64,000 nt of DNA from Botryllus schlosseri (lineage: Eukaryota), in assembly GCA_051294905.1 (NCBI GenBank), contig CM119372.1, positions 12,092,001-12,156,000 of the forward strand. The letters run 5' to 3'. Shown here in pieces: positions 1 through 39,400 of the stretch. The position numbers and the translations under genes are program-made. Numbering within the stretch: the stretch's first letter is position 1; each line of letters starts with the position of its first letter. The notes under the pieces are model-generated. The model was not told the origin of the DNA. It saw only the letters and a list, made by a program, of their open reading frames with translations, and did not search any database.

Positions 1-624
1 TCCTATGCGGGGCTGTTCGGGTATAGATATTCTATTATACTTGATTCCGACTTCCAATTGAATTAGATGGAGAGATTTCCATGAATTACTACTTTTCCCG
101 GTCACTTAAAGCTAGACGTGCAAAAATTATAGCGCAATCGTTTTATCTCTCGAGAATTTAGCTTTTACGCTAGACAGTAGATGAGAACATGCTAATGAAA
201 CGAAAACTGAATTTTTTGAAATTTTCGTATTAAATTATTCATCGTAAACCCGAAATAGTCATTTTTGCATTCAATGTTTCTATATAATAGGTATATAGGA
301 CTATCGTTATAGACACTCAGTCGCAGATACAACGCAGCTTTCCTGCCTGTGATCTGAAATTGCACACTTCGCAGAGGGCTTGGGGAGTTCAAATTTAATA
401 CATCGGGGCTTAGGCTGATGCCATTGTCGCAGGAATTCTGCGCTTTGGGATCGATATAATTTTCCAAATTATTCAAAATGTTACCATCGAGACTTGCTAA
501 TGAGTAAAAGTGCAAGAAATGTGCACCGATTAGAGATGGTGCCTGAGTACTAATTTAATCAATGTATTTAAAAATTCAAATGTATTCGAAATAAGTCTGC
601 AGTGCTAATTCGATGTGTTTTTAG

Positions 625-13127: not shown

Positions 13128-13543
13128 ACCTGTCTCCCGAGGAATGATTTGACTTCTGTTATGAATAACTGATAATACGATGCCATGTGATGTAGTTGCA
13201 GACAGACAATGTACACTTCCAGTCGGGTCCGTCTACTTTGTGCATGTCTACTATGCCGGCTATGTTGATAGTGAATCAACCCCGAAGATATTGGAGTGCA
13301 TCTTATGTAAAATGCGTGCAAAGCACATGACTACTTTGCCTGAAACATGTCAGCCAACGTCAAAATTCAAATTAATACATAATATGGGCGAGGTTGGGGT
13401 GGGTTGGGGTTAAGGTTGGGGTAAGGGTATCCCAAGATTAGGGTTGGGGTGGGGGATATTAGGGTTGAAGGGGGGGGATATTAGGTTAGAGGTGGGTTAT
13501 GGTCAAAATTGGGGTTAGGGTATCCCAATATTAGGGTTGGGGC

Positions 13544-13950
13544 TAGAGTTGCATTCAAAACAAACTGTGTTTTAAAACACTTTGTTTTAAACAGTGTTTT
13601 CAACAAAGTCCTTTTTTAAAAAAACAAAATTGTGTTTCTTTTTAAGTTGTAAAATTATGCCATAATTGTGTAAATACTTTCCAAAAACATGTTGTATGAC
13701 CCTACGGACAATTACCACCCGATATAGCCGACGTATATCGATATGGGATGGTTGGAACTCTCAAAATAGTCGGTTCAACAGCAATAGTACAGATATTTCG
13801 TCAAAGGAGCTATATTTACCCTATATTTTCAATTGTCAAAGTCAATCCACTATGACGTCACAATTGAATATTCCTGACGTCATGTATTAAAAAAATGTCT
13901 TAAACAAGGGCCAATTGTTTTAAACATGTTTGTTTTAAAATGCAACCCTA
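13544..13950. mobile_element. hAT-like MITE inserted in a GGGTT-rich element
   Basis: TAGAGTTGCATT...AATGCAACCCTA; TSD GTTGGGGC/GTTGGGGT. Confidence 0.7.
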
Positions 13951-14157
13951 GTTGGGGTGAGGGTCACGATACTCTCAACTCAGGCCTAATATCCGTCACC
14001 CCCAACACTAATCTAGTAATATGCTTACCACAACTTTAACCTTGACCCACCTCCAACCCAAATATTCCTCTCTTCCGTTCCAAAATGCGTGCACAGTACA
14101 TGGATACTTTGCCTGAAACATGTCAGCCAACGTAAAAATTAAACTTATTACATATAT

Positions 14158-14400
14158 CAGTGGCGGACAACATCCGGCCCGCGAAGGGATTTTGAGCGGC
14201 CCGCCGAGAGTTTCCGGTCGTACATGATAATGTGGCCCGCGGCCGGAGAAAGAGGGCCATGAAACTAGTTTTTCTGTTCAGGTCTACGTACATCTGCGAA
14301 CAAACATTTTTGACCATGAAACGAACAGACAAAACTGCGTTCCAATCTAACTGATGCTCATATGCCGTCTTTAATAAGGGTTCTTCGTCCGACATGCAGC
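14158..14400 (+). mobile_element. hAT (Charlie/GTF2IRD2-like) fragment
   Basis: CAGTGGCGGACAAC end, GGCCCGC motifs, and frame FRSTYICEQTFLTMK matching the hAT C-terminal motif FGSTYxCEQxFS. Confidence 0.65.
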
Positions 14401-14461
14401 TATAGAGTTCAAAGAGCTACATTTTTTAAATATTGTCTCTGGTGATAGTATCGAGGACACG

Positions 14462-14830
14462 TCAGTAGGAAATGTTCGACAGTTTCTCTGGTACGCTGCA
14501 CGTTTCGCAGAGACCACTGTCGTGACAACTCATGCGGTGGAGGTGATAGTTCAATTTACAGTGTCCAGTTTGTAGTCGCAATATAATGGACGATTCCCTT
14601 CGCGATAAATTTCGTGGACGGGGAATGCATGAGAATAGTGTGTGTAAACGTACGTAGAGTCTTGCTGGATGCCGTTTAATTCCGTCATCCACTTCTCAAT
14701 ACATATTCCATTGGTGTGTGACTTCATTTCGGCAAGTGACAGAATGATTTCGTTTTCGTCGTTGGATCCAGGTGTGCTAGCTGCGAGTTTTGCGAGTTCA
14801 TCCGCCCTTTCAATGCCACGTATTCCCTAC
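14462..14830 (-). mobile_element. Decayed RNase H-bearing LINE (I-group) ORF2 C-terminal fragment
   Basis: Minus strand reads GIRGIERADELAKLAAS (RNase H GIxGNExADxLAK motif), then RRESSIILRLQTGHCKLNYHLHRM...CETCSVPE (RLxTGH plus zinc-knuckle region). Confidence 0.8.
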
Positions 14831-15434
14831 ATCTAAAATTATCCGCCAAAATAGAGAATAGAATACGAAACCTTAGATAGTTGAAACGAAGTGATATGAT
14901 GCACTACCCAATTACATATCCATGGGATACAATTTAAGCCTGCGCTAATGGTTGACAAGTAGCCTAATATAAACTATATTCAAATTCAATTTAAATCATA
15001 CCAAGGCTTGGTTAAGTTGAGCACCGGGTACCAATGATCAGTCTATATAACAGAGATGGATACTTAGCTATTATATTGCTTTCCTGTTAGTTATAACAAC
15101 AACGAACGCTGTAAGCTCTAATCGGTTCGTTTGTGGTAAATTTATTTGTGATAGAACAATGGAGGTTCAGTAAAACGCGAAATCATTCATTGAATGAAAT
15201 TGGTCGTTCTCACAGGTCACACGAGCGTATCGAAAACAATCCGAACATATGAAAGATACAGATATCGACACAAAATATTTGATGACTTGAAATTTACTCG
15301 TAAATTTTGCTCCGAGTCACGAGTCAATCTGCATTTTTGAAACGTCGAGTCAAGTCAAGTCAAGTCAGTTTTGCAAAGTGACTCGAGTCAAGTCAAGTCA
15401 TTCGAAAAAGGTGACTCGAGTCATCCCAACACTG
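14830..15434. mobile_element. Partial copy of the 10278-11146 MITE
   Basis: Colinear similarity to 10600-11146, ending ATCCCAACACTG. Confidence 0.75.
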
Positions 15435-15437
15435 GTG

Positions 15438-16285
15438 CAGAGTTGGTCAAAGTAGTCAAGAAAGATACTAGTGTAGAAGTAGAAGTAGCGAAGAAAAAAT
15501 CTACTCAAGTACGAGTAGAAGTAGAATTGGCTGACTTCAAATCTACTCAAGTAAGTAAGTAGTTGTGAAAATGATCGTAATTCGTTCGCATGGATTGTCA
15601 AAAGCTGCAAATTGAGCTATGCGAAAGGTGCAGAGCTTGATTCATATTGATGCATACCAGGAGTTATCCAATTTTCGACAGCATAAGCATTCGTCCACAT
15701 CATGGGATGAAAACGATAGTATTGATATCGAAATGCGACGCTAATCCTCTGTTTACTCGAAAAGCCCATTTTAGAAAATATCATGGTATGACGTCCTCCC
15801 CCATACTATAAGGCTCGTAATTTAGAGCAATACCGAAAAGTTATATCGGATACGGTATGAACACTTTGCGCCAATAAAACGTTAATAAAAAATATGGTGG
15901 TTCGTAAAAATGCCATATTGCGTAGCTTTATTTCCGGAAAATAAAGACGTTACTACAATTGCTTTTATACTTCAACATGTATGTTCTCCAGACAAAAGAA
16001 CTGAAACTAATTAGAACACAAAGTATGATACTGCGAATTAAAAGAGAAATTTGAATATTACTTCTAAAAAGCGGAAAATATATTTCTCTGGAGATCTTTC
16101 TGATAGCAGGATTAAACTACTTCTACTCGACAAAATGAAAAGAGCGAAAAGTGAGTAAATAGATCACAAAATATTACGAAGTAGAAGTAGCAGAAATCAG
16201 ATTTACTTGAGTAAGTACCGCAAGTAGCGGAAAACTACTTGAGTACTTCGAAAAAGTAGAAGTACTTCGTTACTGACCGCCTCTG
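15438..16285. mobile_element. hAT MITE ('AGTAG/CTACT' family), inverted, internally deleted copy
   Basis: Reverse complement of the 6500-7742 ends; CAGAGTTGGTCA...TGACCGCCTCTG. Confidence 0.85.
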
Positions 16286-16882
16286 CGCCGAAGCCGCTGT
16301 CTTGGACACAGGCGAATAGCTTATTCCGAAACAAAACAACAGCACCCCTGGTATAGTGCAAAACGAGCCAAGCTTGGTGTACAGACGTTAAACATTCTCA
16401 TGCTTATGGAAATGCACTGTGATTTGATATAAACTGAACTTGGTTTTTGCTGTAATTCTTCCTAATTCATAATTTCATTCAATTTCCAAGTTTTCGCGAA
16501 TTCAGTAATTCTAATTCTAATCTAATTTGGAAAAAGCTTTTCATTATATCGGAATCTTGTGATGTATTAATTTGATCAAAAATGTTAATAAAATGATGTC
16601 CGACGATCATTACGATTAGTACTTTTCGTACGTCCCTTTTCTACTCCCACTTGAAGTAGATTTGATGACAATACTTCGAAATGGATACCACTTGTACCTA
16701 CTTTTGAAAAAATTTACGTCGCTACTGGTAATTCTACTTGAGCAGTATCAGTTTATTAATATTTTCATCATTTCAAAACACCGGAGCGGATCACTAGATA
16801 GGAATTTCAATTATTTGCTCATCTGTGATTATGTTAGAGAGAGAGAAAGAGAGTCAAAGAGTCAGCCCACTATAGTTGCTAT

Positions 16883-18171
16883 CAGAGGTGGTCAGTAACG
16901 AAGTACTTCTACTTTTTCGAAGTACTCAAGTAGTTTTCCTCTACTTCTGGTACTTACTCAAGTAGATCTGAATTTCACTACTTCTACTTCTACTTCGTAA
17001 AATTTTGTGATCTACTTACTTACTTTTCGCTATTTTCAGTTTGTCAAGTAGAAGTAGTTTAATCCTCCAATCAGGAAGATAGCCTGAGAAATTTCGGGGC
17101 TGTTTACACGGAGAATCGACATTTAATTTTCATAAAAGTTGAGTTAAGCCCAGAATTTTCGTCGCGCCTCGCGCGCGCTGAATGCGGAGTGTCCAGTATG
17201 ATTTCACGAAAGTATCGGCGAACGTAATTTAGGTAGCGGGTTGGCGTGGTTCCGTTCATACCGCATTGTCGCCCTTCGCCATATGAAATATTTCATCACA
17301 GTATATATGGCTTATCATAACGTTTGTAAATGATGTTTCGCAATCTAGCATTTACTTATCATATCGTAATCTAGCTGTCCATGGCGAGTCCTAATCTGAA
17401 AAAGTGGACTCTGACTTCTTTTCTAGTTTTAGAGCTGTTTTAGCATATCAACCTTCGAAACTTCCCGGACTAAAGACTTTATATACATGTTCAATTTTTA
17501 GATTAATATTTCACTTTCAATACCCAATACCATATATTTTGTTTTCTAATTAACATCAGTTCTTTTGTCTCGATAACCTGCATGTTGAAGTATAAAAGCA
17601 AGTGTAGTAAAGCCTTCAATTTCCAGAAATAAAGCTACAGAATATAGCATTTTTACGGTCCACCATATTTTTATTAACGTTTACTAATCTCACAAAGTGT
17701 TTACACCGTATCCAACACAACATCTCCGTATTGCTCTTCGACTAAAGTACAGGCCTTGTAATATGGGAGAGTGCGCAATACCATGATATTTTCTAAAAAC
17801 GTACTCTTTGAGTAAACAGAGGATTAGTATCGCATTTCCATATCAATACTATCATTTTCATCCCATGATGTGGACGAAAGCTTATGCTATCGAAAATTGG
17901 ATACCTGCTGGTATGCATCAATATGAATCAAGCTCGTCACCTTTCGCATAGCTCAATTTGCACCTTTTTGCAATCCACGTGAACGAATTAGGATCGTTTT
18001 CACAACTACTTACTTACTTGAGTACTTTTAAAGTCAGCCAATTCTACTTCTACTTCAAGTAGTTTTAGGTTGCTCATGAAAGAAGTACTTCTACTCGTAC
18101 TTGAGTAGATTTTTTCGTCGCTACTTCTACTTCTACTTGAGTAGCTTTCTTGACTACTTTGACCACCTCTG
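16883..18171. mobile_element. hAT MITE ('AGTAG/CTACT' family), copy 3
   Basis: TIR CAGAGGTGGTCA...TGACCACCTCTG; perfect TSD GTTGCTAT. Degenerate relatives near 36878-37125, 43440-43665, 47833-48000, 48457-48875 and 56410-56825. Confidence 0.9.
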
Positions 18172-21912: not shown

Positions 21913-22569
21913 ATGTTAGGACTAGCTAACATGAGGGAAGTAATCTTTTGATACCCGCATTGGCATATTTAATACCCGGGTTGGAATCCCGGTACGTTTA
22001 GCGTAATATATTTAGTGTGCCAAGACGATCCCTATCGTCATACTTGTGTTCTGTGAGTAGTATCTGCAGTGTGCACGAGACACCAATTCCATATTGGTTT
22101 ATTACATTGCTTGCTTGGTGCCAGCAACCTAACCCAAGGAAGTAAGCTGTATTAAAGTCTAAAACAGTGATTTGGGCACATGAATTTCAGAAACTTGATC
22201 AACTATATTGTGGTATTCAGTTCGAATTGTTTCGTTCGGTTGTTTCATTTGAGTTAGAAAGTAGGCTACCAAATATGCCTTCTTGACAGGACATACTTGC
22301 TGCGCTTGCACATCATGTTATATTATATTACACACAGTGTAATCAAAAACTTGTAGTTAACAATTAACATTCATTGTTTTAAGGCCTGTATGGACCAACT
22401 TCAGGCTACTTTCCATAATCTATACGTCACTCGCTCCACACTGTAGGTGTCCAACAACATAGAAAAGAACGACTCTCGCCTGGTCCTTGATAACCAGTCA
22501 TTGAATATGTGTCCTGTGTACCAATATGGACGTTTGAAGAGCTTCTTGGAGGTACAGAACTTCAATATA

Positions 22570-22790
22570 CAATTAAATAGTATATTCATATTGAAATCAA
22601 CCCGAATATTTTCGGCTGACACTCGTCAGGGGTAATCGTCAGCAACTAGTAGAGAATTGGAAAGAACATTGTATATCAACAATCGTATCACAAAATATGA
22701 CGTCACCAGCATGAAATTTCGAATGAGAGAGCGTTCAATGTACTATTTTTAGGTGATACACGAACTTCTTTTGTTGACAGACGTTGTGGA
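22570..22790. repeat. Dispersed repeat, second copy at ~45558-45770
   Basis: Near-identical ~200 bp including CCCGAATATTTTCGGCTGACACTCGTCAG. Confidence 0.75.
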
Positions 22791-23854
22791 TCATGTAAGC
22801 CAACTTATTTAATGTTGTCTAAAATTAGGTCATAAAAATTGAATCAGTATATTAATATGTATAATCAGTATTGTTTGCGCCTTGCACTAGAGTAGGGGTT
22901 AAACCCGCTCAGAGGCCAAACGCCAGACGCCAAACGCCGAGCGGCGGCCGAATGTCTATACGGCGTTTGGCGTCTAGTTTTCTGAGACGCCAAGTAGCTA
23001 TACGGCGTTTGGCGTCTGATATGGTGAGACGCCGAGTAGCTATACGGCGTTTGGCGTCTGCTATGTTCAGACGCCGAGTAGCTATACGGCGTTCGGCGTC
23101 GGGTATGTTGAGACGCCGAGTAGCTATACGGCGTTTGGCGTCTAGGTAAACTGAGCAGAGGCTAAATCCTTTCATGGCGCGACTATCAAGTTCCCGCAAC
23201 TATATGATACCGAAGATCCATATTGTCACATTTTTTTCATAATAAGCGTTGGCAGAATCCCAAATGATGGTATGTTCAGATTCAAAAAAGACCTACTTGA
23301 TCACCTCCTGTCGTTATACTACTAACTCGACTCACAATTTTTTTGCTGACCTGAGTTATTTTCATAAAAATGGATTTACTCATTCTATGGCTTATCCAAG
23401 AATGGTATATCACGACTAATAAATGAAAAATAGGCCCTAAACCTGCCTTTTATCTGTTACAATAAACATGTTCAGAGTGGGAAAAATGAACATATGAAAT
23501 ATCCGAGGCCTTCGATATCACCCCCGAGAGTTCCATAGAAGTGACCTAAAGCTGAACTGGATGGGGGAACATTAAACACCATGACTTGGACTCAACCCAT
23601 TGCTCTCGGACTTGACTCGGCGTGAATTGAAAATGTCTCAAGTCAAATTGACTTGGTTACAACCCTGTCACCACCCCATATCAGTGTTGGGATGACTCGA
23701 GTCATGACTTGACTCAAGTCACTTTGCTAAAATGACTTGACTCGAGTGAGTCAAAATGTGCAATGACTCGTGACTCGAAGGTAGTGACTTGAACACAACA
23801 CTATAATTGTACACTCACAATGAATTTCAGACCCAAGTCTGTAGATACAGTATG

Positions 23855-24040
23855 TAATGAAACCACAATAAGAAATATGCAACGAATACCACAGTAAAAG
23901 TCATTAAGAAACAAGCAACGAAACCACAGAAAAAGTCACAAAGAAATAAGCAGTGGAACCACAGTAAACGTCATCGAGAAATCAGCAGTGGAACCACAGT
24001 AAAAATCACTATGAAACAAGCAACGAAACCACAGTAAAAT
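23855..24040. repeat. Minisatellite (~35-bp unit, about 5 copies)
   Basis: Repeated AAGAAAxAAGCAACGAAACCACAGTAAAAAGTCA-like units inside the 22890-26259 element. Confidence 0.75.
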
Positions 24041-24069
24041 GTCCCCAATAAATATATAAACATCAGAAT

Positions 24070-25425
24070 TTACTTCTGGGTACATAGCATGCAATAAAAA
24101 TCAGGATCAGGTATCTGCTGTCCCGGGCAACAGTGCTCGTGTGTCCATCGACCACAGCTATCACACGCAACCTGGAAACAAGTTAGAATCAATATACCTG
24201 ACAAATGTAATCTCGTAATTGCATAGGAAAGATGCGGTACCGATGGATCAAAAATCGCAAAATGATCTCTGGCCCTCAAATCTTCAGCCGAGGATATATC
24301 TTTGCTGGCTCAACACTTTGATCCAAGCTCTACGTATCTCGGAAATTTACAAGAATATCCGCTTTTTCAAAAAATATTTATGAACGTTCAAAATTTGTTG
24401 CTCGAACGCATCATTGGTCCCCACCCGGTAGGTCCAAAGGCACACGAGTGACACGACCATGGGACCTAAGAGATATACGTTCAAAAACTCAGATTTTTCA
24501 TATTGTTTTGTTGTGTAATATAATCTAAGCTACAGCAAGTCAATGAAGAATGTTTCGTCGCCACCTTCAAGAATAAAATAGATTATTTGATTATATCAAC
24601 TCAAATGTTGGAGTAAAATCACGTTTCGATTTACGCCCAAAATAACAAAATTATGGCACATTCATATTACCCGTAAATCGACATTTTGACTTCCAATTAC
24701 CTCGTTATAGCGATAAAACACCACAGGAAACTATGATTTGCAGCCTCTATATGTTTAGGCGTGTTTCTGTTGTTAAGTGATTAGTTGATTCAAACATTTT
24801 GCTTGATTTGGTTATGGTACCATAGGCCCCCCACCCTATAAATATTGGAATTTAATTCAAAATAGGCAACTCGAGGATGGTATTGAGTTAAAAAAGATGT
24901 GGCATTATATACCCTGATACAAGCCCTACACTTCACATTAAAAATAATGGCTGGTTTGTTAGTGTGAAAGATTCTGCCAGCATGCATTTGTAGACAAATT
25001 CGCGTACTGTAATCATGGGATTATCTCAGATAATATTTCAAGTATTTTCGGTCACACTGTCTCATCGGTACCACATCTCCCCTACCCATTTCATGTCTTT
25101 TTTCATTGGGTCTGGACTACTGCATTCAATGCAATAATCTCCCAATTCTTTTTCATCTGCATGCAAAACATACTACGTATTTTAAATGGTTTTAATCCAA
25201 CATTGACTAACATACCCGTCGCATCAAGCAAGATTTGACCAAACTGCTGGCGGTAGCTTTCGCAAGCTCGTCGAAAATGATCAAAATCCAGGTTTGCATC
25301 GGGTAGAGTTCGGCGGCCTATTACGTGAAAGTAGATTGCAAATCAATTTTCTCAAATCTCAATACGTGAACGCATCACAAACCTTCAAAGCAAGTACTCC
25401 ACAATTTCACCCATCTTTTGGAACA
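24070..25425 (-). pseudogene. Decayed spliced Ulp1/C48-protease + PHD-finger coding remnant; exons ~25425-25383, 25317-25216, 25156-25086, 24171-24070
   Basis: Spliced minus-strand reading PKDG*NCGVLALK | AAELY(frameshift)..DANLDFDHFRRACESYRQQFGQILLDAT | DEKELGDYCIECSSPDPMKKDMKW | VACDSCGRWTHEHCCPGQQIPDPDFYCMLCTQK*. Complete C4HC3 PHD pattern; Ulp1-type DGxNCG motif interrupted by TGA. Confidence 0.78.
24226..25082. mobile_element. TA-flanked MITE inside the PHD intron
   Basis: Imperfect TIR GGAAAGATGCGGTACCGATG / CATCGGTACCACATCTCCCC with TA on both sides (24224-25, 25083-84). Confidence 0.7.
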
Positions 25426-27479
25426 TCAATCCTGGTCTTCAACCTTGAACTTCTCACAACCGAAGATCATTTGTAGTATACTTGTGTTGTGTAGAACTTT
25501 GCGGAGTAATATCGAAACGAAATATTAGGTGTGTCTTGAATACGATCTCAGTGACGCGAACTGTTGATTTACCCCAGCATACGTGAAGTGGAGATACAAA
25601 GGATTTTGCAGCTGTGTCAGTGTAGTCTAGAATCAATCACTAACAAACTATACTAGAAAACAATAAAATATCTTGTTACTACACGTCACATACTGTAATC
25701 TTCTTGCGGTGGTTAAGTTCCCAGCAACAAATCATGCAGTATCTGTAGTAACGTGACTGACGACCTGTCTAATACGAAACGTGTATGTTCTCAAGCAGCC
25801 AGATATTCAGTGTCGACCTAGCACCGAAGCACACGCGATGTCGTCACCTAGTAGCGTGTACTGTACAGTGTACAGTCAGTGTACGCACGAAACAACCATC
25901 AAATCTCTTGCCCACTGGCCAATGATTTGACATGCTTTGCTTAGATTTAGCTGCAGAAAACTCCTGTTCAAGCCTCAACCTTCAAATCAAACCCTATTCT
26001 CAACATACCAGATGGCGAACGCCGTATAGGTATAGCTACTCGGCGTCTGAACAGACACCAAACGCCGTATAGCTACTCGGCGTCTGAACAGACACCAAAC
26101 GCCGTATAGCTATTCGGCGTCTGAACATAACAGACGCCAAACGCCGTATAGCTACTCGGCGTCTCAGAAAACCAGACGCCAAACGCCGTATATACATTCG
26201 GCCGCCGCGCGGCGTCTGGCGTCTGGCGTTTGGCCTCTGAGCGGGTTTAACCCCTGTTGTTGCACTAATGTCAGAGCAGTTATAGTTTATGCAATCTCAT
26301 TCAGAAAGTATCTACAATTTCTATAGAACTTGACTGAGCTTGGAAGGTTGGAAAATAGTCAACTATTCCACAGTACAAAATAGATTTTATAAAATAGACC
26401 CAGCGGTTTCTGATCAATGAGGGAATCTATAATTATGCTTGATTGCACTATAATATGCAAGTATATAAACTCCGTCTCAAAAAACACCAATATCAATTTA
26501 TCAATCAATTCCTTTGCTCTAGTTCACCTTATATTTATATGTTTTCAATAATTTGCCTCAAATATGAATTTGAATAAGTATTTATGTTCCTTCAGTACAA
26601 TGATCGGGTTTGATATACATCAATGACAATGTGAATAATTGTAATGCTTGCAATCATTTCAAATTTTGTCTTGCATGAATATAATCCACTTCGTAGGGTA
26701 TAAATGACCTTCTTGTATTCAAATTATACACATAGTACACCTTGTCGGTGTGATCTATATCAAGGAAGTATACCCAAGCTCAATGTATCAACTTGACAGG
26801 CTGTGTCAGTGAATATCTTGATATAAGACGTGCTCTGCAATAAAATGCATTCAAGATCAAGACGCTTGCTGATTGATTTTCGGAAATCATTAATGAAGGG
26901 ATGTCACAATGATCCACCATATCAGAAAGCAAGCAGGTGGCTTCACATACCAGTGGTGTTGTACACCAGACCTGTTTCAAATTGAAGCCTGGGACCAGCT
27001 TATTAAGCCTATGTCTGTGCTAAAATCTTAAGCCCTGTAACTGTCACGGCATCGTTGTGATCACCTACCTATGCAATGTCCTAAAATTAAATATGTTAGT
27101 TAAAACATGTCACATACTTCTTTTGCGCATATATGCGTACTGTGATATTCTGTGCGATGTTACATAGTTTTATATCTATAACATCACTTAGATGGGCTAG
27201 CCTAATAGCATTTGGATGTGATTTATTGTGTGATAAATGCATCATTTCATATCGAGTCACTTTAAAAACTGCCTACTCAATATATCTTTGCTTCCAGTGA
27301 GGATTTAGATGTGGCGGGGCTTACTGCTGATGCTAGCTTCTTGTTTTACGTACTACATTGTACTTTTATACTTTCATAGCGATATCTGGTCGTGTAATTT
27401 TGACTGCCGCCTAGGCAATCACTTTACTTCATTAATGAATTAGTGATAAATATTCTACTTGTTGTGTGCAACAAATAGA

Positions 27480-30400
27480 ATGACAGCAGTGAACCATGAC
27501 CATGCTGCAAGACTGGTGAGTTGATTTTAGTGATAGGAGCTTGAATGCAGGTAACGTTTCAAATGTCAACGTTCTTCAGGTGACCCACCTGTCACAGCAA
27601 AGATCCTCCGGAAAATACTGCGACGTGTGTGTCTGTGTCGCTGAACAGAGGTTTCTAGCTCACAAATGCGTATTATCAGCTAACAGCGACCAACTGGATT
27701 CCCTTATTCTGGTGAGTTTACAAGCTATTTGAACTGATCACTGCCATGTTTTTTCTGGTGTAGATCTGAAAGTTACTCGTATTTTAGCTTCTATCATATA
27801 TATATATCAGGAATTGAAACGTTTTGTATATTATTAACTGAATCTGGAAATTGGGGACTTTCCACACTGAAGAAAGGCACTGATGAGTAGAAACGGCTAT
27901 TATATGGATCATTGATCCGCTGTAGCAATCCCTATGCCAGAAAATAGTTTAGAAAATGATTATAGAGTGTTGTTGTACGATGGGTAGCCTATATGTCCGA
28001 TCATCAGCCTCTTTTTTGCGGGGTTTTGGATGCTGCATATCTATGCACTCATCTTAGGGGCTCATCTAACAGAGGTAAAATATATTTTATAGGATGCTAC
28101 TGATGAAGACAATGCCAGCCATGATATAGAAATAGAAATCCATGGAGTGAGCCCCGTTGGATTCGAGGTAGGTGCTATTTCCTACAGGGTTGGTTCGATT
28201 ATGTTCACAATAAGAACAATTTCGTTCACAATAAGAACAATCTCATGTTCACAATAAGAACAGTCTCATGTTCACAATAAGAACAGTCGTTAAATTCGCA
28301 ATAACATCATTCGCAGCACCAACACATCCCCCGGACACGATGACCGAGTGGCAACATAGTTCGAACACAACCCAGACATGATGTCCGAACACCCCCAGAC
28401 GCAATGTCCGAGTGTCAACGCAGTCCGAACACACTCCTGACATGATGTCCGAACACCCCCAGACACGATGTCCGAACGCCCCCCCCCCCCTTCAGACACA
28501 CCCCAGACATGATGTCCGAACACTCCCCCCCCCCCTAGACATTATGTCCGAGTGACAACGCATGCTGTCCGAACACACCCAAGACATGATGTCCGAACAT
28601 CCTCCATACACGATGTCCGAACTCGCCACGCCCCAGACATGATGTCCGAGTGTCAACGCAGTCCGGAGACCCCCCAAACATGATCTTATGAACACACCCC
28701 AGGCTTGATATTTGAACACAGGCCGGGGCATGATATCCGAACACGATTTCCGATTGACAACGCAGTGCGACACCTGGCTCATGATATCCGAACACCCCCA
28801 GACATAATGTCCGAGTGTCAATGCAGTCCGAAGATACGTGTAGATAATACGTTACTCAATGAGAGCAACGCTAATACTTGTGATGTCATAAATGGAGCAG
28901 TGGAGTTTGAAAATCCAACGTTTCTGCGATCAATGACCTGATTGTTAATATCACACTATAGTGTACGAACTGCATTGACACATCGGACATCATGTCTTGG
29001 GTGTTTTCGCACTGTGTTGCTACTCGGACGTCGTGTTTGGCATATGTTGGTGCTGCGACTGACATTGTTATGAATATAACGGCTGTTCTTATTGTGAACA
29101 TGAGACTGTTCTTATTTTAACCATGACAGACCATATTGTGAATTGGCACAGTCCGATCCTACCTCAGACATCGTGTCTGGGGTGTCTTCGGACTGCATTG
29201 ACACTCGAACATCATGCCCGGGGGTGTTCGGATATCATGACTAAGGTGTCTCCGCACTGCGTTGCCAATCTGAAATCATGTTCGAACATCATGCCCCGGC
29301 CTGAGTTCAAACATCAAGTCTGGGGTGTGTTCATAAAATCATATTTGGGGTGTCTCCGGACTGCCTTGACACTAGGAGGACATCATGTCTGGGGCGTGGC
29401 GAGTTCGAACATCGTGTCTAGAGGGTGTTCGGACATCATGTCTTGGGTGTGTTCAGACTGCGTTGGCACTCAGACATCATGTCTAGGGTGTGTTCGGACT
29501 GTGTTTTCAATCGGAAATCGTGTTCCGTCATCATGTCAGGAGTGTGTTCGGACTGCGTTGACATTCGGACATCATGTCTGGGGGGTGTTTAGATATCATA
29601 TCTGGGGTGTGTTCGGACTGCGTTGACACTCGGACATCGTGTCTGGGGGTGTTCGGACATCATGTCAGGAGTGTGTCCGGACTGCGTTGACACTCGGACA
29701 TCATGTCTTGGGGGGGGGTGTTCGGACATCATGTCTGGGGTGTGTTCGAACTGCGTTAACACTCGGACATCGTGTCTGGGGGTGTTCGGACATCATGTCT
29801 GGGTTGTGTTCGGGCTATGATGCCGCTCGGACATCGTGTCCGGGGATATGTTGGTGCTGCGACTGATGTTATTGTGAATATAATGACTGTTCTTATTGTG
29901 AACATGAGACTTTTCTTATTGTGAACATGACTGTTCTTATTGTGAACATGAGACTGTTCTTATTGTGAACGAAATTGTTCTTATAGTGAACATGAGATTG
30001 TTCTTATTGTGAACATGAGATTGTTCTTATTGTGAACATGAGACTGTTCTTATTGTGAACGAAATTGTTCTTATTGTGAACATGAGATTGTTCTTATTGT
30101 GAACATGAGACTGTTCTTATTGTGAACGAAATTGTTCTTATTGTGAACATGAGATTGTTCTTATTGTGAACATGAAACTGTTCTTATTGTGAACAAAATT
30201 GTTCTTATTGTGAACATAATCGAACCAACCCTCCTCGCTATTTCGGCTATTTGTTCTGAGCTCTACATGTTTTTCTATCAGGATTAATACTTTTTTTCTC
30301 GCTTGGAGTTGTTTGCTTGTTTACCTGCTTTGAACCAGACGGTCAACTTCGGCTGCACTTATTTATTAATTTTTTTATTCGGATTTGGAGCATTTGGCTC

Positions 30401-33400
30401 TGCCACTATAATATATTTTGAATGCGATGAAAGGATTAGATTATTTTTTGTCTGCACCATCATGGTACCTAGGCGATGGAGATGCAATGGAGCCATTGGG
30501 TTATTGAGTGTTTTGAGCGCCTAGCGTGGGGCCTAGTTGATTCTAGCCATGACCTACTGATTGAGAAGTCGATGCTTTAGCCTACTATTGCACAATCTCT
30601 TTCGTGCTGTACAAATTTCGTGGGATCATGGATCCAAATTACCAACAAACTGACTGTGCAGATCTATATACGAATTTGACAATACTGTGAGATGTTGAAT
30701 TCTCGTATTTCAGATTGTTTTGGAATATTTTTATACGGGAGTGTTAAGATTAGAACCGTCGACCGTTACACACACTTGGATGACTGCCGTTTACTTGGGA
30801 CTACCAGATATTATCAACCGTTGCAATAGTTATTGTCAGCAATCGGTCTGTGTCACTGCGCATGCCAAATTGCCGACAGCGCCAAGCAATACGCTCACTA
30901 CAGCAAATCAACAGGTAGGCCTATATTGTCTGCACTCTTTCAGACTGTAGATTTCATAATAGCACAACAGTTCCTAGTTATAGGTATGCGACAAGTGATG
31001 TATTAGAAGCACATAATAGTGTGGGTAAGGGTGGACTATGCGCACCAGCTGATTTTTGTGGCATCGGTATTATGATAAAGATGAGGCCTTCACTACTCGA
31101 GTTGTGACTGTGTAGCAAGCTGAACTGGGCAGACATCCTGTAGCTATATCAGCCCGAACTACTATTCGTCATATAGTATTATTTGAATGCCTGTTATTTA
31201 ATAAAACATACCATGTAGAGCAGGGCCGGCCAACCCATGGCCCGCGGGCCACATGTGGCCCGCGAGAAGGTTTTGAGTGGCCCGCGAGGTAATTTCCGAA
31301 ATTGGTAATGTTATCAAAATTGAATTGCACAGATTGAACTTGCAAGGCCAACCAAAAATTTGATTAGTCTCTCAGCAACACTTGAGATGTGATGACTAAA
31401 ATATCAGTTACGACGCATTGGCATTTCCATGAGCCGGTCACACTTTGGTAGATCTTCGTACATTTCAATAAAGCAGAATAATTTGCGATAAATTTATCAA
31501 AAGTAAATATTTTCTACACGCTTCGCGCAACATGCTGTCACTCGATTTCTTGCTTTTAATATTGTTACCCCTATGTGAAAATGAAAGAACACCTATAATA
31601 CATCAGATTGAGTCTAACTATATTCTCAATTACGAGACAAAGTGTCGTTCAACATATGCGACCTGGCGTTTGCGCTCGCAGAAAGATCGTCGACTATGAA
31701 ACCTGGGCACAAAATGATTGATGCATGTTGGTCGAAGCTTTCGAAATTGATATGTCCAGGCGCTGAATAGTCCAGTCCTGGCAGACTGAGTCAAGTGATA
31801 TACCGCAGGCCCGCAATATAGTCAAGTGACAATAATATTGAGCTACGAGCTTCCAAAAATTTTCGCGCTTCGCGCGGCTAGTGGCCCGCGCAATATTTCG
31901 TCGATCGCATGTGGCCCTTTGGCTGAAAAGGTTGGCCAGCCCTGATGTAGAGGGTAGTGGGGAGCGGATACCATGGAAAGTAACTGCACCCTCTAATGAA
32001 GGGATGGTGCGAACCCCTGTAAAGTTCTGGTTCGTGTGAACACGAACCTTTGCGGAAGCTACCGTGTGAACGTGAACCTATGACGTTATGTTACTAATGA
32101 CAACCCTACATTTCCGTAAAGTTATATGTTAATGTACATTAGGGCTGTTCAAAAAAAAAATTTTTCCTGAATCTTGCTGGTTACGTGATTAAATCGTTAG
32201 GTTGCCTTAAAAAACGACGCACACCAAATTTTAATTCATTCCAACCAATAATCGCTGATTTCGTACAGTTTGAAAATTTTGAATTTACCCAAAAATGCAA
32301 AAAAAAATTTTTGTCAGATTTATCTGTTAACCCCATGAAATCGTTGCGCTGTCTTCAAAGACGATGCAAAACAAATTTGACTCAATTCCAACCAGTAGAA
32401 GTGGAGCTATTTGAGTTTTTATTCGATAATTCGGAGATTATTCTAGATCTGTGGATAATCCAAGAATTATCATCGAAAAACTCAAATAACTCCGGTTCTA
32501 CTGGTTGGAATTGAGTCAAATTTGTTTTGCATCGTCTTTAAAGACAGCGCAACAATTTCGTGGGGTTTACAGAAAAATTTGACAAAAAAATTTTTTTGCA
32601 TCTTTGAGCAAATTCAAAATTTTCAAACTGTACGAAATCAGCGATTATTGGTTGAAATGAATTAAAATTTGGTGTGCGTCGTTTTTTAAGGCAACCTAAC
32701 GATTTAATCACGTAACCATCAAGATTCGGGAAAATAAGCTATTTTTGAACAGCCCTAATGTACATTATGACTAGCCACGACTCTAGGCCATATTGTGCCA
32801 CAATGCTAAAGTACATGCTGACTTTTTAAACGTCACCTAATGTATCAACTGCTAAAATATTTCCACAAAATCGTTTGCCAATAATTTTTTCAAGGACTCG
32901 GCTAGACCGTACAGATGTATTCTTACTAGTGTAAGACCGGTTTCTATGCTTCCACCAAATATTATCTTAAAAACAAGTTTACAGTAGCCTACACCCCAAT
33001 CGGACAGATTTGGTTTTGATGACACCATAAAGGCTGCTGCACACTGGCTTTGCGACACGACTAAAACAGGTAATTCCCCGATCATGTCGCGCTCACGATC
33101 GCGGTAGTTGCGTTCTTCTGCACACTGGGACACCGAGTCGTAACGTCGGCCTATCTGTTCTGTACCAACTTAATGATTTCGTAACAGTATAGGTTCTTGG
33201 TTATTACTATTGAAGGACACATCAAGATACCTCCTACACAACACATGTGTTTTCAATGTGTACTGACAGCATATTGCTGATGCTCCGAATTTTGATAAGG
33301 AATATACACCATAATGTCACTAATATATTCTCAAATTCGTTTAGTATTTCAACTCAAACTCAAGACGCAGATGCACAATATACAGTACCCAAGATACAAA

Positions 33401-36400
33401 GAATATTAAGTAGAAGGAGTCTAATCGTTGAAACGCCCTGACATAGTCCATCAATCAGATATTTTTATAATATATAGGCCTACTCTTCTTGGCCTACCGG
33501 TACTTTAGTAATGTCAAGCATGTCAGTGGCATTGGCGGGCTAGCGGTCATGTTCTCTGTTATTCATCTTGTATTGTGAACATAGAGTAATCTAATTATCA
33601 AATATATCTTCATCTTTAAGTTATCAAGTTGAGGTTGAATCATTCTTTTTCTGGACTTGTTGGATATCATACAGCGCACTGCGTCAATCCCGCACAGCCT
33701 TCACTGTGTAACCCTAGATAAATTACGCATCTGGTACACGAGAATGTTAGATTAGGAAGTTTAACGATTAGAAAAGATTGCAACAGCACCGCCGAACTAA
33801 GAGCAAGTGCTTTTTTTCTACTGCGACTGAGCCCGCAACTCGCGACAAAGTTCAAAATTTTCAACTTTGTCGGCGAGTTGCGCAGCCCACTCGCTGACGC
33901 TTTGTTGCGTAGTCTGGCGACGCGGTGTGCATGGTTTTGTCACAGACAGCCGCGATTCCCTCGTTTTGTTTTGAGCCAGTGTGCAGCAGGTTTAAGGATC
34001 TCAAATCAAGATAGATCCCGTACGCCCGATAGATTTTTTTACATTAAACATTGATGCATTCTTTATATCAACTTCGTTGATGTAAATAACTGATTGATTG
34101 ACTAAACACAATTCACTGACTCCCTACATGTAGCGTGTTTCATTCTTGCTATTGTGTGATTGCGGGCAAAGCTCACAGCAGAAAGTCACCAAAGATTCAC
34201 AAGCAGAAAACTGAATATTTCGAGCGAATAGTTTTGGAAATTGGCAATGTGCATACTCATGCTCATTTAGTGCTGAATTTCATGCCGCCAGAGCCATGCG
34301 GAAAGTGGTTCGAAGTTGAAATGCAAAGAATTTCAACCAAAGATGTTATCATGTCGTGAAAAATTGAATTACATGAAAATATTCACAGTGCCGAACCTAC
34401 CATGGCTCGTTTGTGAACACGAACCTCCAAATTCCAAAGGCTCACACACAGAATGCGAATGTGAACCTCATGTTCACACCATCCCTACTGCTATGGCCCG
34501 CCTCATCCGCAGCACTACCGTACCTGATTGATTTGTTTGTGATGACAGTTAATCGAACTTCTATTTGCTTCTGTTATCCGATACAGCACACTGCTTTGGT
34601 TCCCGGCAATAATACTAAAGCACAACCACAATCAAACGGGGATCTTGTACAAGCGCAACTCACCACCAATACCGTATTGTCCACTGCGACAAATCAGGTA
34701 AGGGTTCTGTACGACTAGTTTTTATCCGAATAATCTTTCATATACAACTTGTTGACTTACAATAATGAATGCATGCTGTGATACTCATGCTCCTCATTTT
34801 CCAGCCGAAAGTCAATAGCATGGTGAAGTTTAAAGAAGAAGCCACCAGGCAAAGCATGGTTGATGCCGCCGCCAAAGGTGAAGTTATTGAGACAATAGCT
34901 CGTTCCATGGTTTGAGACTGTCTGAATTTTTATACTGCACTATTATACTAATTTCAGTCGAACTTATTCAACTTGTAAAATACAAGGAGGCAAAAAACTT
35001 CTTGGGTCAACTGGACGGAATAGCATGCTCCATCATTACTTAATGCAGTGGTTCCCAACCTTTTCCATCTCGTGCCTCCCTTGGCCGAAATTTTAGCCAA
35101 AATTCCCCCCTTAGGATAAATCTGCCCGATGAATAAAAATGCTCATTTTTTCCGCGTAAACACCTGTTGACTGTGAGAATAAGACGGGCGGTATCGAGTG
35201 TTTGTTTCTAGCAGTGCTGTAATAACACTTTGTAGAACTCCAAAAACCATGGTCTTGGTCCCAATCACACAAATTCTGGAAGGCTTGACTCAACAGACCC
35301 CCACACTTCCATTTGTGTTTTCGGCTTACCGTGCACCAATCGCTAATATAACTACTGTGAAAAATCAGTATCCATAAATTTACTGGTCTCGCGATTTTTT
35401 TCTCAAGTTTGCGTATGCATTTGGCCAACAATAGTGGTACTTTCATATATAGAAGGGTTGACCAGACTCGAGTTTGACTCGAGTCACCATTTTCTGATAC
35501 CTAGACTTGATCGAGTCATTTTCTCAAAATACGGAAACGACTTGAGACAATCTGGGTATTGACTCGACTTGGACTCGAGTCATTGTGCATGACTCGAACC
35601 AAGTCATATGACTCAAAACTATAACACGGCCAAGACCGACATTTCATTGTAATTTCGAAGAACAGTAAAGTGACAACCCTGTTGGAATTTTGTCTATTTA
35701 TCCTGGTACTTGACAATGTGAAGAGAAACTGCTCAAAGTGAGGAAAATTATTATGTCATAAATCCAAATCATTCAATATCACCAAACAGTGTTGACTTGA
35801 GTGGGACTTGGACTCGTTCTCGAGTCATAATACCATGACTCGGACTCGACCGTCTGCTCGGTGACTTGGACTCGGACTTGACTCAATGGTGAATTGAAAA
35901 TGACTCGACTTGACTCGAGTCAAAACTATGAAAGTGAGATTGACTTGTGACTCGGAGCCTCATGACTGGGTTACAGCCCTGATATATAACATACACGTGA
36001 TCAGATTCCCTGCTGGAGCGCATTGAAATTTTGGACACCCATTACGTTTCGGCAACATTGCACCAAGTTTACCACGTCTTTTTTCGATCGGGTAGCTGTT
36101 CACTAAAAATAAAGCAATGCTAGCGATCTCTTTGACTTGAATTGATAACGTTGGAATATTTAGTCACTGTCTGAAAATGTTGACTTGAAAATATAAGATA
36201 AATACTTTCACTAGAGGCCTTGTTGTGATAGATTCGGCACGACATTTACTCGCTTAGGATATATTTGATTGAGAAGCCGTCGCTGGCCTACAAAATTGTC
36301 TTGCGAACTGCAGCACATCTGAACTAGTTAGAAAGAAAAAAAAAGGGTTGGGGGGGATTTGTATATGAAAAAGAGATTTTAGATAGCATTTGAACATACT

Positions 36401-39400
36401 TTCAGCAGACAAAAAACAGCCATAAGGAGCATACGTTCGGATATAGCTGGTTGTCTACATGACATCTCGAACATGAACAATTTGGGAAATCCGTTACAAT
36501 TCTAAAGTGGAATTCCTCCCTAAAAATTGCAAAATTCCCCCCAAGGGGGGAATTCCTCCCCGGTTGGGAACCACTGACTTAATGCCTCTAGGATGGGGCT
36601 AAACGTTATTCATTTGCGTTTTGATGCCGAATTCTTGGACATTGCTTGTCGTGTTACTGGTAGTGCTACAAAAATTGAGGTTTCTTCTATCATCAGTTGA
36701 TCTCGTCATGGCCCGCAAGACTAAGATTCCAAGGGAGGAGACGTTTTTCCGAATACAAAATGCGTAATGCAGCATCGTAGCAGGGAATAGTAGTTCATAA
36801 ATACCATCGGCGACGTATTGAGCACTTGCAACTTGGCAGTAATTGCCAGTAAAATTCCTCAGATTTGTGTCATTTACAGAGGTGGTGAAAGTAGACGCTA
36901 TTGGTACTCGAGTTGAAGTAAAAGTAACAATGTAAATTTTTACTCGGGCAGAGGTAGTGATTACGAGAATACGAGTAAGTAAAAAGTAAGTCAGTATCCT
37001 CTGAAAACTTGAGTGGAACTAGTAGTCTAAAGTCATGACCGCTTGAGGTAATGGTGCAAGCAGACGAAAAATTATTGGAGTAGGCCTACTTCAAAAATGT
37101 AGAAGCACTTCTTCGCTGACCATGTCTGTTCACATTTACAGACATCAAAAACCAGCCCGTTGAAATAAGGGAGAAGCAAGGCGAATCGGAGACGCCGGAA
37201 AGCAAAAAAGCAAAGTACGCGACGATGGACGAGGTACAGCCTATTGGTGCAATTGCCGGTTTCTACCCGTGACAGAAAGTTTCACGTTGCAGAATGCCAT
37301 TGCGTGGAACCCGCACTCGCAGCAGAACGCCGGTGCCGCACAACCAGCCGTAGCGGTTCCCAGCAGCGCGGTGTCGCAGGTCGTCGTCAATTTCGTGCAG
37401 GGTTACGGGGGATCTTATCAGTGAGTGCAGTACATTCTTACAGTTACCGGTGAATTCGGCACTTGGCTGCCCCTAACCTGAATACATTACTAAAGCAGTT
37501 CTTAACTGGGGTTCACACAAACCACAGCGGTTTGCTGGTGGTCAAGGCACACAGCCAACTCATACAGCAGAAGTGACACAAATTTTCAATAAATATTCAA
37601 AATCATTTGTTTGTTTTGTCTGGAAATCATGTTTTAATGGTTTTGTTCATTTTACATCGAGGGTTGGGAGCCTTTTTTGACCGAAGAGCCATATTGACCC
37701 GATACGTCGAATTCTAACTCCCAAAGAGCCATAAATGTCAATCAACTGTTACAAAAGTGGTACATCAAAATTGAAAATTCGTGACGTATTTGTAGCACTA
37801 ATATATGGGATTCGTAGTGTGCGCAATATTTTTGTGCCCACATGCGTAGGTGGAACCGAACATGTTCACTACAGCAGTACATACTTAACTTACCGCAGGT
37901 TGTGATACGTCAGTGACGTGATGTTAGGGGAGGCACGTGAGGCAGTGCCTCGCATGTCAGGGATGAGTGAGGAAAAACTGTGAAACCTTCAATGATTATA
38001 ATTGGTATTTTTTTTATCGGTGTTTATGAATAATTAGATTTTAGACATGTCTATCCCCAAAATCAATTTTCATATTTGTTCGAAAATAAAGCGCGAAAGG
38101 AGAGGCACGGACGGGCCAAGCCTCACTCATGATAGCGGAACTTATTGTAAATAAGTTGATATTATTGATATTGATATTTATACTGATATTATTCAAATGA
38201 AATTGTCGCGCTGATTTCGAAAATCTAAACATTGATCGACTTCTAAAGTATTCGGCGTCACATAAATTCACCAACAGGTTGCTGAAGTATTGATAAATTA
38301 TGTACAAAATTTAAAATTTGTCAAAGCGCCATATCTTCTACCCGAAAGGGCCATATATGCCTCGCGAGCCGCAGGTTCCCGACCACTGTTTTACATTGTC
38401 GTTGATGCTTACTGCACAGCTCATTTTGAACACCGACATTCTATAGTGGGCTACCGATAATGTTTTAAACGGTTAATGCGATAGGTTTTTGTGACTGGAC
38501 GAAAATCTGGGGTTCGCAGATTAGCGTTATGGCTCGGCAGGTGAGTAAAGGTTGAAAACCGTCTCATTCGCCGATGTTCCGAATTCACAAAGTGCCATAT
38601 ATTACAATTAACGCTCATATTCAGTGAAACATTCATTATAGATTATTAACGCAATATGCATCATCGCTTTTATAATAACAATAGATTACATTTCTAATGC
38701 CAAATTCACCGAATGCCGAATAGCTGACATCGTCCTGTGTGTTGTTTTGCAGAGCCGTTGATTGGCCCGGTAACGCAAACCAGCCGTGGACGCAGCTTCA
38801 AGTGGGGAAAGGCCAGATCGTCGCCACCGGCATGATACCGATCGCGTCGCAAGTGAAATCTGAAAGCGTTCAGAATTCGCCCGTGCAAATCCTCGCGGCA
38901 GGTGATACAATTCGTTTGTATCAAAATTTTCGCCGTTGTGAAACGCCGAAAGATTACAGTACGATAAAATGATAGTAACGAGTCGAAACGACTTCAAGAC
39001 GATATCTATCCGTCGCAAACTTTCACCATGGCCTTAAATGGAGTGAAAAAGTAAATGATTGTGATAAAATAGGCCTGCACGCTAGGGCTCTTCAAAAATG
39101 ACTTTTTTCCCAAATCGTACTGGCTACTTGATAAAATTGTTAGGCTACCTAATTTAAGCCTACACACAAAATTTGGTTCAATTCCAGCCAGTAACCGCTT
39201 TGCTACAGGAGAAGAAAGTTTCTATTTATTATATAAAAATAAATAATAAAAAATTTGAAAATTTTCTGTTCACCCCATGAAAGTGTTAGGCTGTCTATAG
39301 AAACGATGCTCACCAAATTTGGTTCAATTCCAACCAGTGGAAGCGGAGTTATTGCCGTCGAAAAATTTGGATTTGAATAAAATAGTATTTACGGTGACCG

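Follow-up and report, generated by a model that had tools for sequence, protein, structure and literature searches.

Within the stretch of DNA analysed here (the window, 64,000 nucleotides of Botryllus schlosseri contig CM119372.1), pieces of a Ulp1-like protease and of a PHD finger lie between two inverted, repeat-built arms, which raises the question of what this locus is and where its coding pieces came from. We consider it very probable that it is a non-autonomous, multi-copy cut-and-paste transposon, derived by internal deletion from an autonomous parent with a Ulp1+PHD tail. Positions 22890-26259 form a 3,370-bp element with tandem-repeat inverted arms, flanked by an exact 8-bp target-site duplication (TSD), TTGCACTA, which is the sole 8-mer placement near the ends (an exact 8-mer by chance: ~0.0016, 81 placements). 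The arms are 94% complementary across 167 nt (22894-23060 against 26089-26255), with 4.6 copies of a 42-bp unit on the left and 4.1 copies of 37/42-bp units on the right. Arm pairing, unit counts and TSD placement thus confirm the outline given in the sequence-only reading, namely a 3.37-kb element with tandem-repeat arms and an exact 8-bp TSD. The element has the inverted repeats and TSD of a cut-and-paste TIR transposon, with the four outermost bases unpaired (GAGT versus CAAC) and followed by AGGGGTTAAACCCGC at both ends. These tetramers were absent from the earlier description. An unrelated second foldback element in the window, at 28182-30236, also has an 8-bp TSD and asymmetric ends, and the ends of the two families read C(A/T)AC-AGGG and GAG(T/G)-AGGG. 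A hAT placement, with the ends at the inner TAGGGG/CAGGGG, was rejected because it yields no TSD and the second element reads GAGGG there. A 24-mer from the arm had no matches in the metagenome contigs searched.

Table 1. Features of the element, in window positions
Feature	Position	Strand	Description	Remark
Left TSD	22882..22889	+	TTGCACTA	8-mer placement
Left arm	22890..23148	+	3' end in gene orientation; GAGT unpaired, then inverted repeat, 42-bp tandem units 22956-23148	
Nested short repeats	23575..23810	.	AGTCA-rich; limits approximate	alike stretches at several other window places; high DNA depth
Minisatellite	23869..24054	.	35-bp unit, 5.3 copies, directly behind stop codon	RNA reads of element family cover array
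Exon D	24070..24171	-	C-terminal PHD half (VACDSC...WTHEHC...CMLCTQK*)	
Nested insertion	24226..25082	.	857 bp, ~20-bp inverted ends, TA either side, 3 nt into exon C donor	
Exon C	25086..25156	-	N-terminal PHD half (DYCIEC...KW); skipped in RNA joint seen	
Exon B	25216..25317	-	helix after protease Cys; frameshift follows AAELY	
Exon A	25383..25652	-	decayed Ulp1-like protease; recognisable part only (P/Q)KDG*NCGVLALK Cys motif	
Right arm	25998..26259	-	5' end in gene orientation; 37/42-bp tandem units, inverted repeat, CAAC unpaired	
Right TSD	26260..26267	+	copy of left TSD	8-mer placement

The coding remnant consists of four minus-strand exons, A to D, all with GT-AG borders and separated by introns of 65, 59 and 914 nt, the last being a 55-nt intron plus the nested insertion, whose DNA depth is much above that of its host element. 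Exon A apparently starts at the acceptor at 25652 and contains five stops when read in one frame. Most of what had been proposed for this remnant from the letters stands: the four exons are collinear with intact Ulp1 (C48)+PHD proteins (33% across 107 aa), the PHD finger is indeed split, with exons C and D together supplying all eight ligands of the Cys4-His-Cys3 pattern, the copy has both the in-frame TGA (DG*NCG) and the one frameshift, which lies near the start of exon B, and no transposase is left in the element, a Pfam search of the six frames of 24000-26000 giving none and no CxC, KDZ or SAP match. The peptide end, proposed as FYCMLC*, is corrected to FYCMLCTQK*.

Exon D matches the Pfam PHD family (E=0.0013, under the curated cut-off), and all 12 of its 12 matches in a PDB search are PHD-finger chains, whereas Pfam C48 gave no match for the window's own exons; the proposed Pfam check for C48 and PHD gave a match below the cut-off for the finger and none for the protease. 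The Tyr before Cys1, the Trp before VACD and the Trp before His resemble the H3K4me3 cage. A search with exon D and its intron lead-in returned no candidates, and among proteins of 82-2000 aa none had three 5-residue words in common with this exon; against 1.84 billion representatives it had no close relative and recovered three unrelated multi-PHD proteins. Homologue searches and metagenome contigs likewise gave no close intact relative for the window's own pieces.

Of the protease, no part can be recognised except the end with the catalytic Cys. The Ulp1/SENP motif Gln-x-Asn/Asp-Gly-x-Asp/Asn-Cys and the following helix are found when the family letter is used, which gives Gln: position 25420 is T in each of the four runs, in reads and contigs alike (138 of 140 RNA reads in X24), and this T yields Q-K-D-G-*-N-C, spaced like the Q-x-N-G-x-D-C of C48 proteins confirmed by Pfam, while the window copy has Pro in place of the family Gln in addition to the in-frame stop. 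The motif match in the relatives is not independent, because they were collected with a pattern built on the motif itself. The spliced reading gives unbroken alignments with the intronless Ulp1+PHD loci L052 and L115 (tblastn E=1e-7 to 2e-7 over 105 aa), which are the top two of the 90 loci compared, L052 having Pfam C48 (E=1.8e-8) plus PHD. It also matches the proteins P0006 and P0007 (48.5 and 42.7 bits), which carry C48 and PHD by Pfam and whose PDB matches are SENP1/Ulp1 and PHD chains; the AlphaFold model of P0007 has a mean pLDDT of 35. With a profile from three such Ulp1+PHD relatives, A-B-C-D scored 37.5 bits with the frameshift and 12.0 unshifted, and A-B-D 19.8, and over 3,186 window chunks the top five all lay inside the element. 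Exons A and B scored 18.1 bits with a 31-sequence Ulp1 profile, a value reached by none of 1000 plain and 16 of 1000 motif-kept shuffles. With a five-sequence viral Ulp1 profile the score was 7.2 bits, and 25 of 1000 motif-kept shuffles reached it. The catalytic His/Asp part was undetectable upstream with the 31-sequence profile (best upstream frame -1.0 bits); YSLLVID, considered as the strand after the catalytic His, had no score support and is not claimed. Exon A had no PDB matches, a homologue search with an A+C read-through confirmed none of 87 candidates at E<=10, and among the viral contigs scanned none had the family motif and 0 of 120 were confirmed for A5.

A protease-PHD pairing of this kind is not new, having been described in transposons in 2010: in Bao et al. 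2010 (PMC2836005), the DDE transposase of Ginger1-9_HM carries at its C-terminus, as the gene tail here does, a PHD finger together with the catalytic domain of Ulp1, introns interrupt its coding sequence, and Mutator transposases stand in the same alignment. Ginger1 differs in its 4-bp TSD and TGT ends, against 8 bp and CAAC/GAGT in our element. Rehavkus and other animal Mutator-like elements (PMC6446971) resemble the element in their long TIRs, PHD finger and minisatellite before the 3' TIR (here the 35-bp array and the PHD match), and the MULE TSD range of 8-11 bp includes the 8 bp found; however, the TSD tabulated for Rehavkus is 9 bp, the terminal four bases are unpaired here and the copy has no DDE domain. 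The Mutator membership suggested in the sequence-only reading is not demonstrated: no transposase survives, the same tail lies behind a KDZ transposase (L069/L076) and the Rehavkus TSD has a different length. For the parent's superfamily we give a Mutator/Rehavkus-like parent somewhat under an even chance and a Zisupton/KDZ parent a slightly smaller one, with some other superfamily improbable.

As a sub-case of the preferred reading, the parent may have been a Zisupton/KDZ element (SWIM-CxC-DDE-SAP-Ulp1-PHD) and not a Mutator-type one, a version to which we give appreciable but less than even weight. L069 has a KDZ-associated CxC4 domain (E=1.5e-6) upstream of its Ulp1 motif, which has a phase-0 intron in the position seen here, the next exon likewise starting AAEL, and L076, a 95%-identical twin of L069, has a PHD behind the protease. 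Inverted repeats that start four bases inside the ends also fit the repeats of Zisupton, which Bohne reportedly called "subterminal" in 2012; the same work is said to give the Zisupton domain order, with a C-terminal SUMO protease. The 8-bp TSD is the Zisupton/KDZ value (PMC12730594), and Zisupton genes are multi-exonic (PMC9297572), as here, but this feature is not specific, since the SWIM-bearing L060 is also spliced and has the same intron site. Against a Zisupton/KDZ parent, the best protein matches, P0006 (raw 123) and P0007 (raw 116), carry a SWIM-like finger ~120-190 aa ahead of the protease and no transposase in the intervening stretch, which is the Mutator-like order of SWIM-like finger, Ulp1 and PHD, whereas the Zisupton/KDZ loci are less similar to the element, spliced loci scoring <=85 (a rough search in which L076 was not completed). 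The copy itself retains no CxC, KDZ or SAP domain. The SWIM-like finger has no Pfam match, and a profile comparison supports it weakly (probability 3.8%, E=0.011). The MULE TSD range and the Rehavkus minisatellite speak on the same side, and the 5' ends of the fungal KDZ elements examined (PMC12730594) are unlike those of the element. Scoring 92 targets exon by exon gave no separation of the superfamilies (151 versus 149, 136 and 128; median 117). The literature search gave no match joining Zisupton to Ulp1+PHD or to a SUMO protease, for foldback elements in Ciona, for TIR transposons with Ulp1 and a PHD finger, or for a transposon-encoded SUMO protease and PHD linked to silencing.

We regard it as unlikely that the polar ends are a lineage signature and not decay, marking a distinct foldback group whose transposase would use an H3K4me3-reading PHD finger and a SUMO protease to direct insertion towards active chromatin and to reverse the SUMO-dependent silencing there. 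Among 13 selected loci examined, the asymmetric end motifs were not found behind the protease. A Pack-MULE-like capture, in which the arms acquired 3' exons from a SENP-PHD gene of the host and no such tail ever belonged to the parent transposase, is very improbable. Although it would suit an intron-containing fragment within a non-autonomous element, Pack-MULEs do carry host fragments (PMC6446971), and the atlas has chordate clusters of C48+PHD proteins, of which one bears the automatic name "sentrin-specific protease 1-like" (score 0.83) and is no more than a lead, the closest relatives are preceded by a SWIM-like finger or by a KDZ transposase, Ulp1+PHD is already published as a transposase tail (PMC2836005), and homologue searches found no close host-like protein.

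The summed contig depth in X1, which is not a copy number, is 2,400-5,900 along the greater part of the element against 13-21 in the right flank, and this more than 100-fold excess, with presence under a second species label, is a rough indication of many dispersed copies. A contig of organism B spans 25271-25709 with no gaps, hence the exon-B frameshift is common to both. Nearly all RNA reads come from other copies or alleles of the element family. The proposed spliced gene is upheld for the A-B joint (25316/25382; 47 reads in X24 and one X15 contig), but not for exon C, since the joint listed after B runs directly to D (62 reads) and skips it. Among the joints listed, the dominant RNA of the family is thus without the first PHD half; because exon C with its insertion-bearing donor is skipped, the dominant transcript has no intact PHD. 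No empty-site joint occurred among the 15 joints listed (533 more exist). That this spliced RNA is functional, as a 61-aa B-D peptide with one zinc site or as a co-opted RNA, is very improbable: both joints are well supported and an ATG-started frame runs across B and D, shifted B being in frame with D without exon C, but that B frame is not ancestral, the peptide lacks two of eight zinc ligands and exon C's Tyr and Trp, the word search with exon D found no related protein of 82-2000 aa, and leaky transcription of a high-copy element accounts for the reads.

In the deletion-derivative reading that we prefer, an autonomous parent would have encoded a multi-exon transposase ending in a Ulp1/SENP-type (C48) protease and then a C-terminal PHD finger. 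An internal deletion would have eliminated the transposase along with most of the protease and kept both arms, so that the element presumably remained mobile in trans and multiplied; arms, TSD and many copies are observed, whereas the mobilisation is inferred. The coding remnant then decayed (stops, one frameshift), and a TA-flanked element landed in the splice donor of the exon encoding the first PHD half. Family copies are still transcribed and spliced, mostly without exon C, such that the dominant RNA can make neither a working protease nor a working PHD. The skipping probably reflects the damaged donor, possibly aided by decay of stop-containing forms. The earlier view, in which a cut-and-paste element gave rise by deletion to a dead copy with a Ulp1-like+PHD gene tail, is supported. 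For the tail of the intact parent, the likeliest role, which we hold tentatively and at less than even odds, would be that the PHD docked the transposase on chromatin methylated at H3K4 and the protease stripped SUMO from the transposase or from local silencing and repair factors; the anti-silencing or targeting role proposed for the tail is hypothetical.

As found, a decayed non-autonomous family is of limited importance, and since the protease-PHD pairing has already been described in other transposons, the element is mostly ordinary mobile-DNA debris. It does offer an example of a nested insertion in a splice donor that accompanies exon skipping across a transposon family, and the asymmetric ends, common to two families, could be diagnostic for foldback elements with 8-bp TSDs once they are tied to a transposase. 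The arms provide a handle for locating the intact parent in this genome, and there the idea that a transposon-borne SUMO protease and PHD finger serve to guide insertion or to counter silencing would become testable.

The 3,370-bp foldback element is real, a new non-autonomous transposon of an already known type, and the tandem-repeat arms and exact 8-bp target site duplication (TSD) described in the sequence-only reading are borne out. The chance probability of the exact 8-mer is about 0.0016, given 81 possible end placements, and the arms, made up of tandem units of 42 bp and 37/42 bp, are 94% complementary over 167 nt. A 35-bp minisatellite comes after the stop codon of the gene remnant. 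The outermost four bases are unpaired, the ends being GAGT-AGGGGTTAAACCCGC and CAAC-AGGGGTTAAACCCGC. Because a second foldback element, whose repeat units are unrelated to those of the first, exhibits the same asymmetry (CTAC-AGGG and GAGG-AGGG), unpaired terminal bases are more likely a feature of the lineage than a result of decay, on the basis of two cases in one window. The third foldback element is Mutator-like.

Features of the window and of related metagenome loci (window positions unless a contig is named)
Feature	Positions	Strand	Length	Remarks
Foldback element	22890-26259		3,370 bp	flanked by two copies of TTGCACTA
TSD TTGCACTA	22882-22889 and 26260-26267		8 bp	exact copies
Exon A	25652-25383	-		GT-AG intron after (65 nt)
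Exon B	25317-25216	-		GT-AG introns (65 and 59 nt)
Exon C	25156-25086	-		GT-AG introns (59 and 914 nt)
Exon D	24171-24070	-		terminal, GT-AG intron before (914 nt)
Nested insertion	24226-25082		857 bp	~20-bp inverted ends, TA each side
Second foldback element	28182-30236		2,055 bp	8-bp TSD GCTATTTC; 23-bp and 64-bp units
Third foldback element	53063-54111		~1,049 bp	9-10-bp TSD GAGGTTAAT(G); paired GGCCC ends; 9/33/42-bp units
Short repeat	22530-22790			left of element; very high copy, summed depth in DNA-type run X1 in millions; second copy at 45555-45762, 89% alike
Inverted repeats	32134-39729			start TAGGGCT, 65-71% alike, separated by ~7.6 kb; perhaps one older element, or else the same repeat present twice
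Dispersed repeats	6500-18171		200-700 bp	several, alternating orientation, 70-88% alike
Host-like exon frame	60249-61889	+		presumably nucleotide-sugar-transporter-like
Host-like exon frame	572-1048	+		presumably membrane-receptor-like
Metagenome locus L069	whole contig	-		intron-rich KDZ/Zisupton gene, apparently near-complete; CxC4, C-terminal Ulp1 motif
Metagenome locus L060	1100-6400	+		Ulp1 motif then PHD-like finger; SWIM upstream
Metagenome locus L079				intronless; Ulp1 motif then PHD-like finger
Metagenome loci L073, L034				spliced; Ulp1 motif then PHD-like finger

The element belongs to a repeat family, as shown by its summed depth in X1, which is 2,400-5,900 on most of the body versus 13-21 on the right flank (not a copy number); in all, four of the 24 listed runs were analyzed, at 85% likeness. 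The gene remnant contains the in-frame stop in DG*NCG and the frameshift after AAELY that had been read from the sequence, with five stops within the reading frame of exon A. A 439-nt contig from X8, a run labeled as a second species, covers 25271-25709 with 13 differences and without gaps, and hence the exon-B frameshift is shared and older than that copy. The remnant does end near CMLC, the actual terminus being CMLCTQK* and not FYCMLC* as proposed.

The PHD finger is indeed split over two exons, all eight zinc ligands coming from exons C and D combined. In the Pfam comparison of the peptide the PHD half of the earlier assignment stood, with exon D alone matching at E=0.0013 (under the curated cut-off), while the window's own pieces gave no match to C48. 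All 12 PDB matches of exon D are PHD-finger chains, and its Atlas neighbours are mostly PHD clusters. Since three homologue searches with the window's own pieces also returned no close relative, metagenome contigs were scanned for the protease motif, yielding 90 loci; these relatives were chosen on the motif itself, which limits the independence of a motif match. Two loci without introns, L052 and L115, which are nearly identical to each other, align unbroken with the spliced reading across its four exons (105 aa, 29%; E=2e-7 and 1e-7, the next of the 90 loci at E=0.005). Pfam finds C48 (E=1.8e-8) and PHD in L052, and both domains also in its two longer protein relatives, P0006 and P0007 (2 of 6,626 candidates). 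In the PDB, P0007 matches chains of SENP1, Ulp1 and PHD fingers; P0006 aligns to the spliced reading over 107 aa at 33% (48.5 bits). When L052, P0006 and P0007 are combined in a profile, A-B-C-D scores 37.5 bits with the shift, versus 12.0 without it and 19.8 without exon C, and the best five among 3,186 six-frame window chunks all lie inside the element; this confirms the proposed four-exon model as the ancestral reading.

Exons A and B score 18.1 bits on a 31-sequence Ulp1 profile, a value equalled by none of 1000 plain shuffles and by 16 of 1000 motif-kept shuffles. No stretch upstream of the Cys motif scores on this profile, so the part with the protease His and Asp is unrecognisable. Position 25420 is T in all four runs (138/140 RNA reads in X24), which replaces Pro by Gln; the resulting Q-K-D-G-*-N-C has the spacing of Pfam-confirmed C48 proteins. 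This read-based Gln supports the protease motif independently of the motif-chosen relatives.

The nested insertion, which is high-copy with a depth far above that of its host element, lies three bases into the exon C donor; removing it would leave a 55-nt intron that starts GTATGC rather than GTAGGG. An X15 contig (24561-25144) bridges the insertion and exon C, and therefore the insertion is present in one or more other copies or alleles. For giant transposons, KDZ among them, PMC12477816 describes nested insertions that have become fixed in multiple copies. In the raw RNA reads of X24 (unstranded, some 6% of the run), 47 reads, along with one X15 contig, support the A-B splice, and 62 join B directly to D, a joint absent in X1 and X8; this is among 15 of 548 joints listed, and rare forms with exon C could lie outside these. 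The exon-C bin reaches a depth of about 6, against some 95 for B and 184 for D. The RNA derives from other copies or alleles, as 133 of 134 reads disagree with the window at 25410. RNA depth drops steeply close to the 25652 acceptor, perhaps owing to splicing to an exon missing from this copy. With exon C skipped, shifted B is in frame with D, and the ATG-started frame reaches 61 aa at most and lacks the first two zinc ligands. Skipping may have arisen from the damaged donor, the skipped form perhaps being enriched as stop-containing forms decay.

The transposase is missing, and we infer that an autonomous parent would have lost its internal part by deletion, the derivative then spreading in trans. 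There is a nearly even chance that this parent was Mutator/Rehavkus-like. According to PMC6446971, the TSDs of MULEs range from 8 to 11 bp, and Rehavkus resembles the element in its PHD and in a minisatellite ahead of the 3' TIR, but differs in its tabulated 9-bp TSD versus 8 bp here. The best matches, P0006 and P0007 (raw 123 and 116, with roughly spliced loci reaching no more than 85), contain a CxC-x5-CxH finger that lies 120-190 aa before the protease with no transposase between; by profile it weakly matches the Pfam-SWIM stretch of L060, although it gives no Pfam SWIM match itself. A Zisupton/KDZ parent is a serious possibility, somewhat short of even: Zisupton reportedly has subterminal inverted repeats and a SUMO protease at the C-terminus. 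The group shares with the element an 8-bp TSD (PMC12730594) and multi-exon genes (PMC9297572). L069, with CxC4 at E=1.5e-6, is interrupted by an intron at the position seen here, with AAEL next, and a PHD follows in its twin L076; SWIM-bearing L060 shares this intron position, and hence the Ulp1-PHD tail does not decide the superfamily. Ginger1 is excluded by the TSD and ends.

An Ulp1 and PHD tail at the transposase C-terminus is in print for Ginger1-9_HM, which is aligned there with Mutator transposases (PMC2836005). No closer description was found in the literature within reach, most subscription papers and Repbase reports lying outside it. SUMO has a role in silencing, and aromatic residues stand at what we take to be the cage positions of the PHD. 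Neither the window copy nor the dominant family RNA can dock on chromatin or remove SUMO. For the tail, Bao et al. (PMC2836005) proposed a part in post-transposition repair. In an intact parent, the role that we consider likeliest, at somewhat less than even odds, is that the PHD would anchor the transposase to H3K4-methylated chromatin and that the protease would take SUMO off the transposase or off silencing or repair factors.
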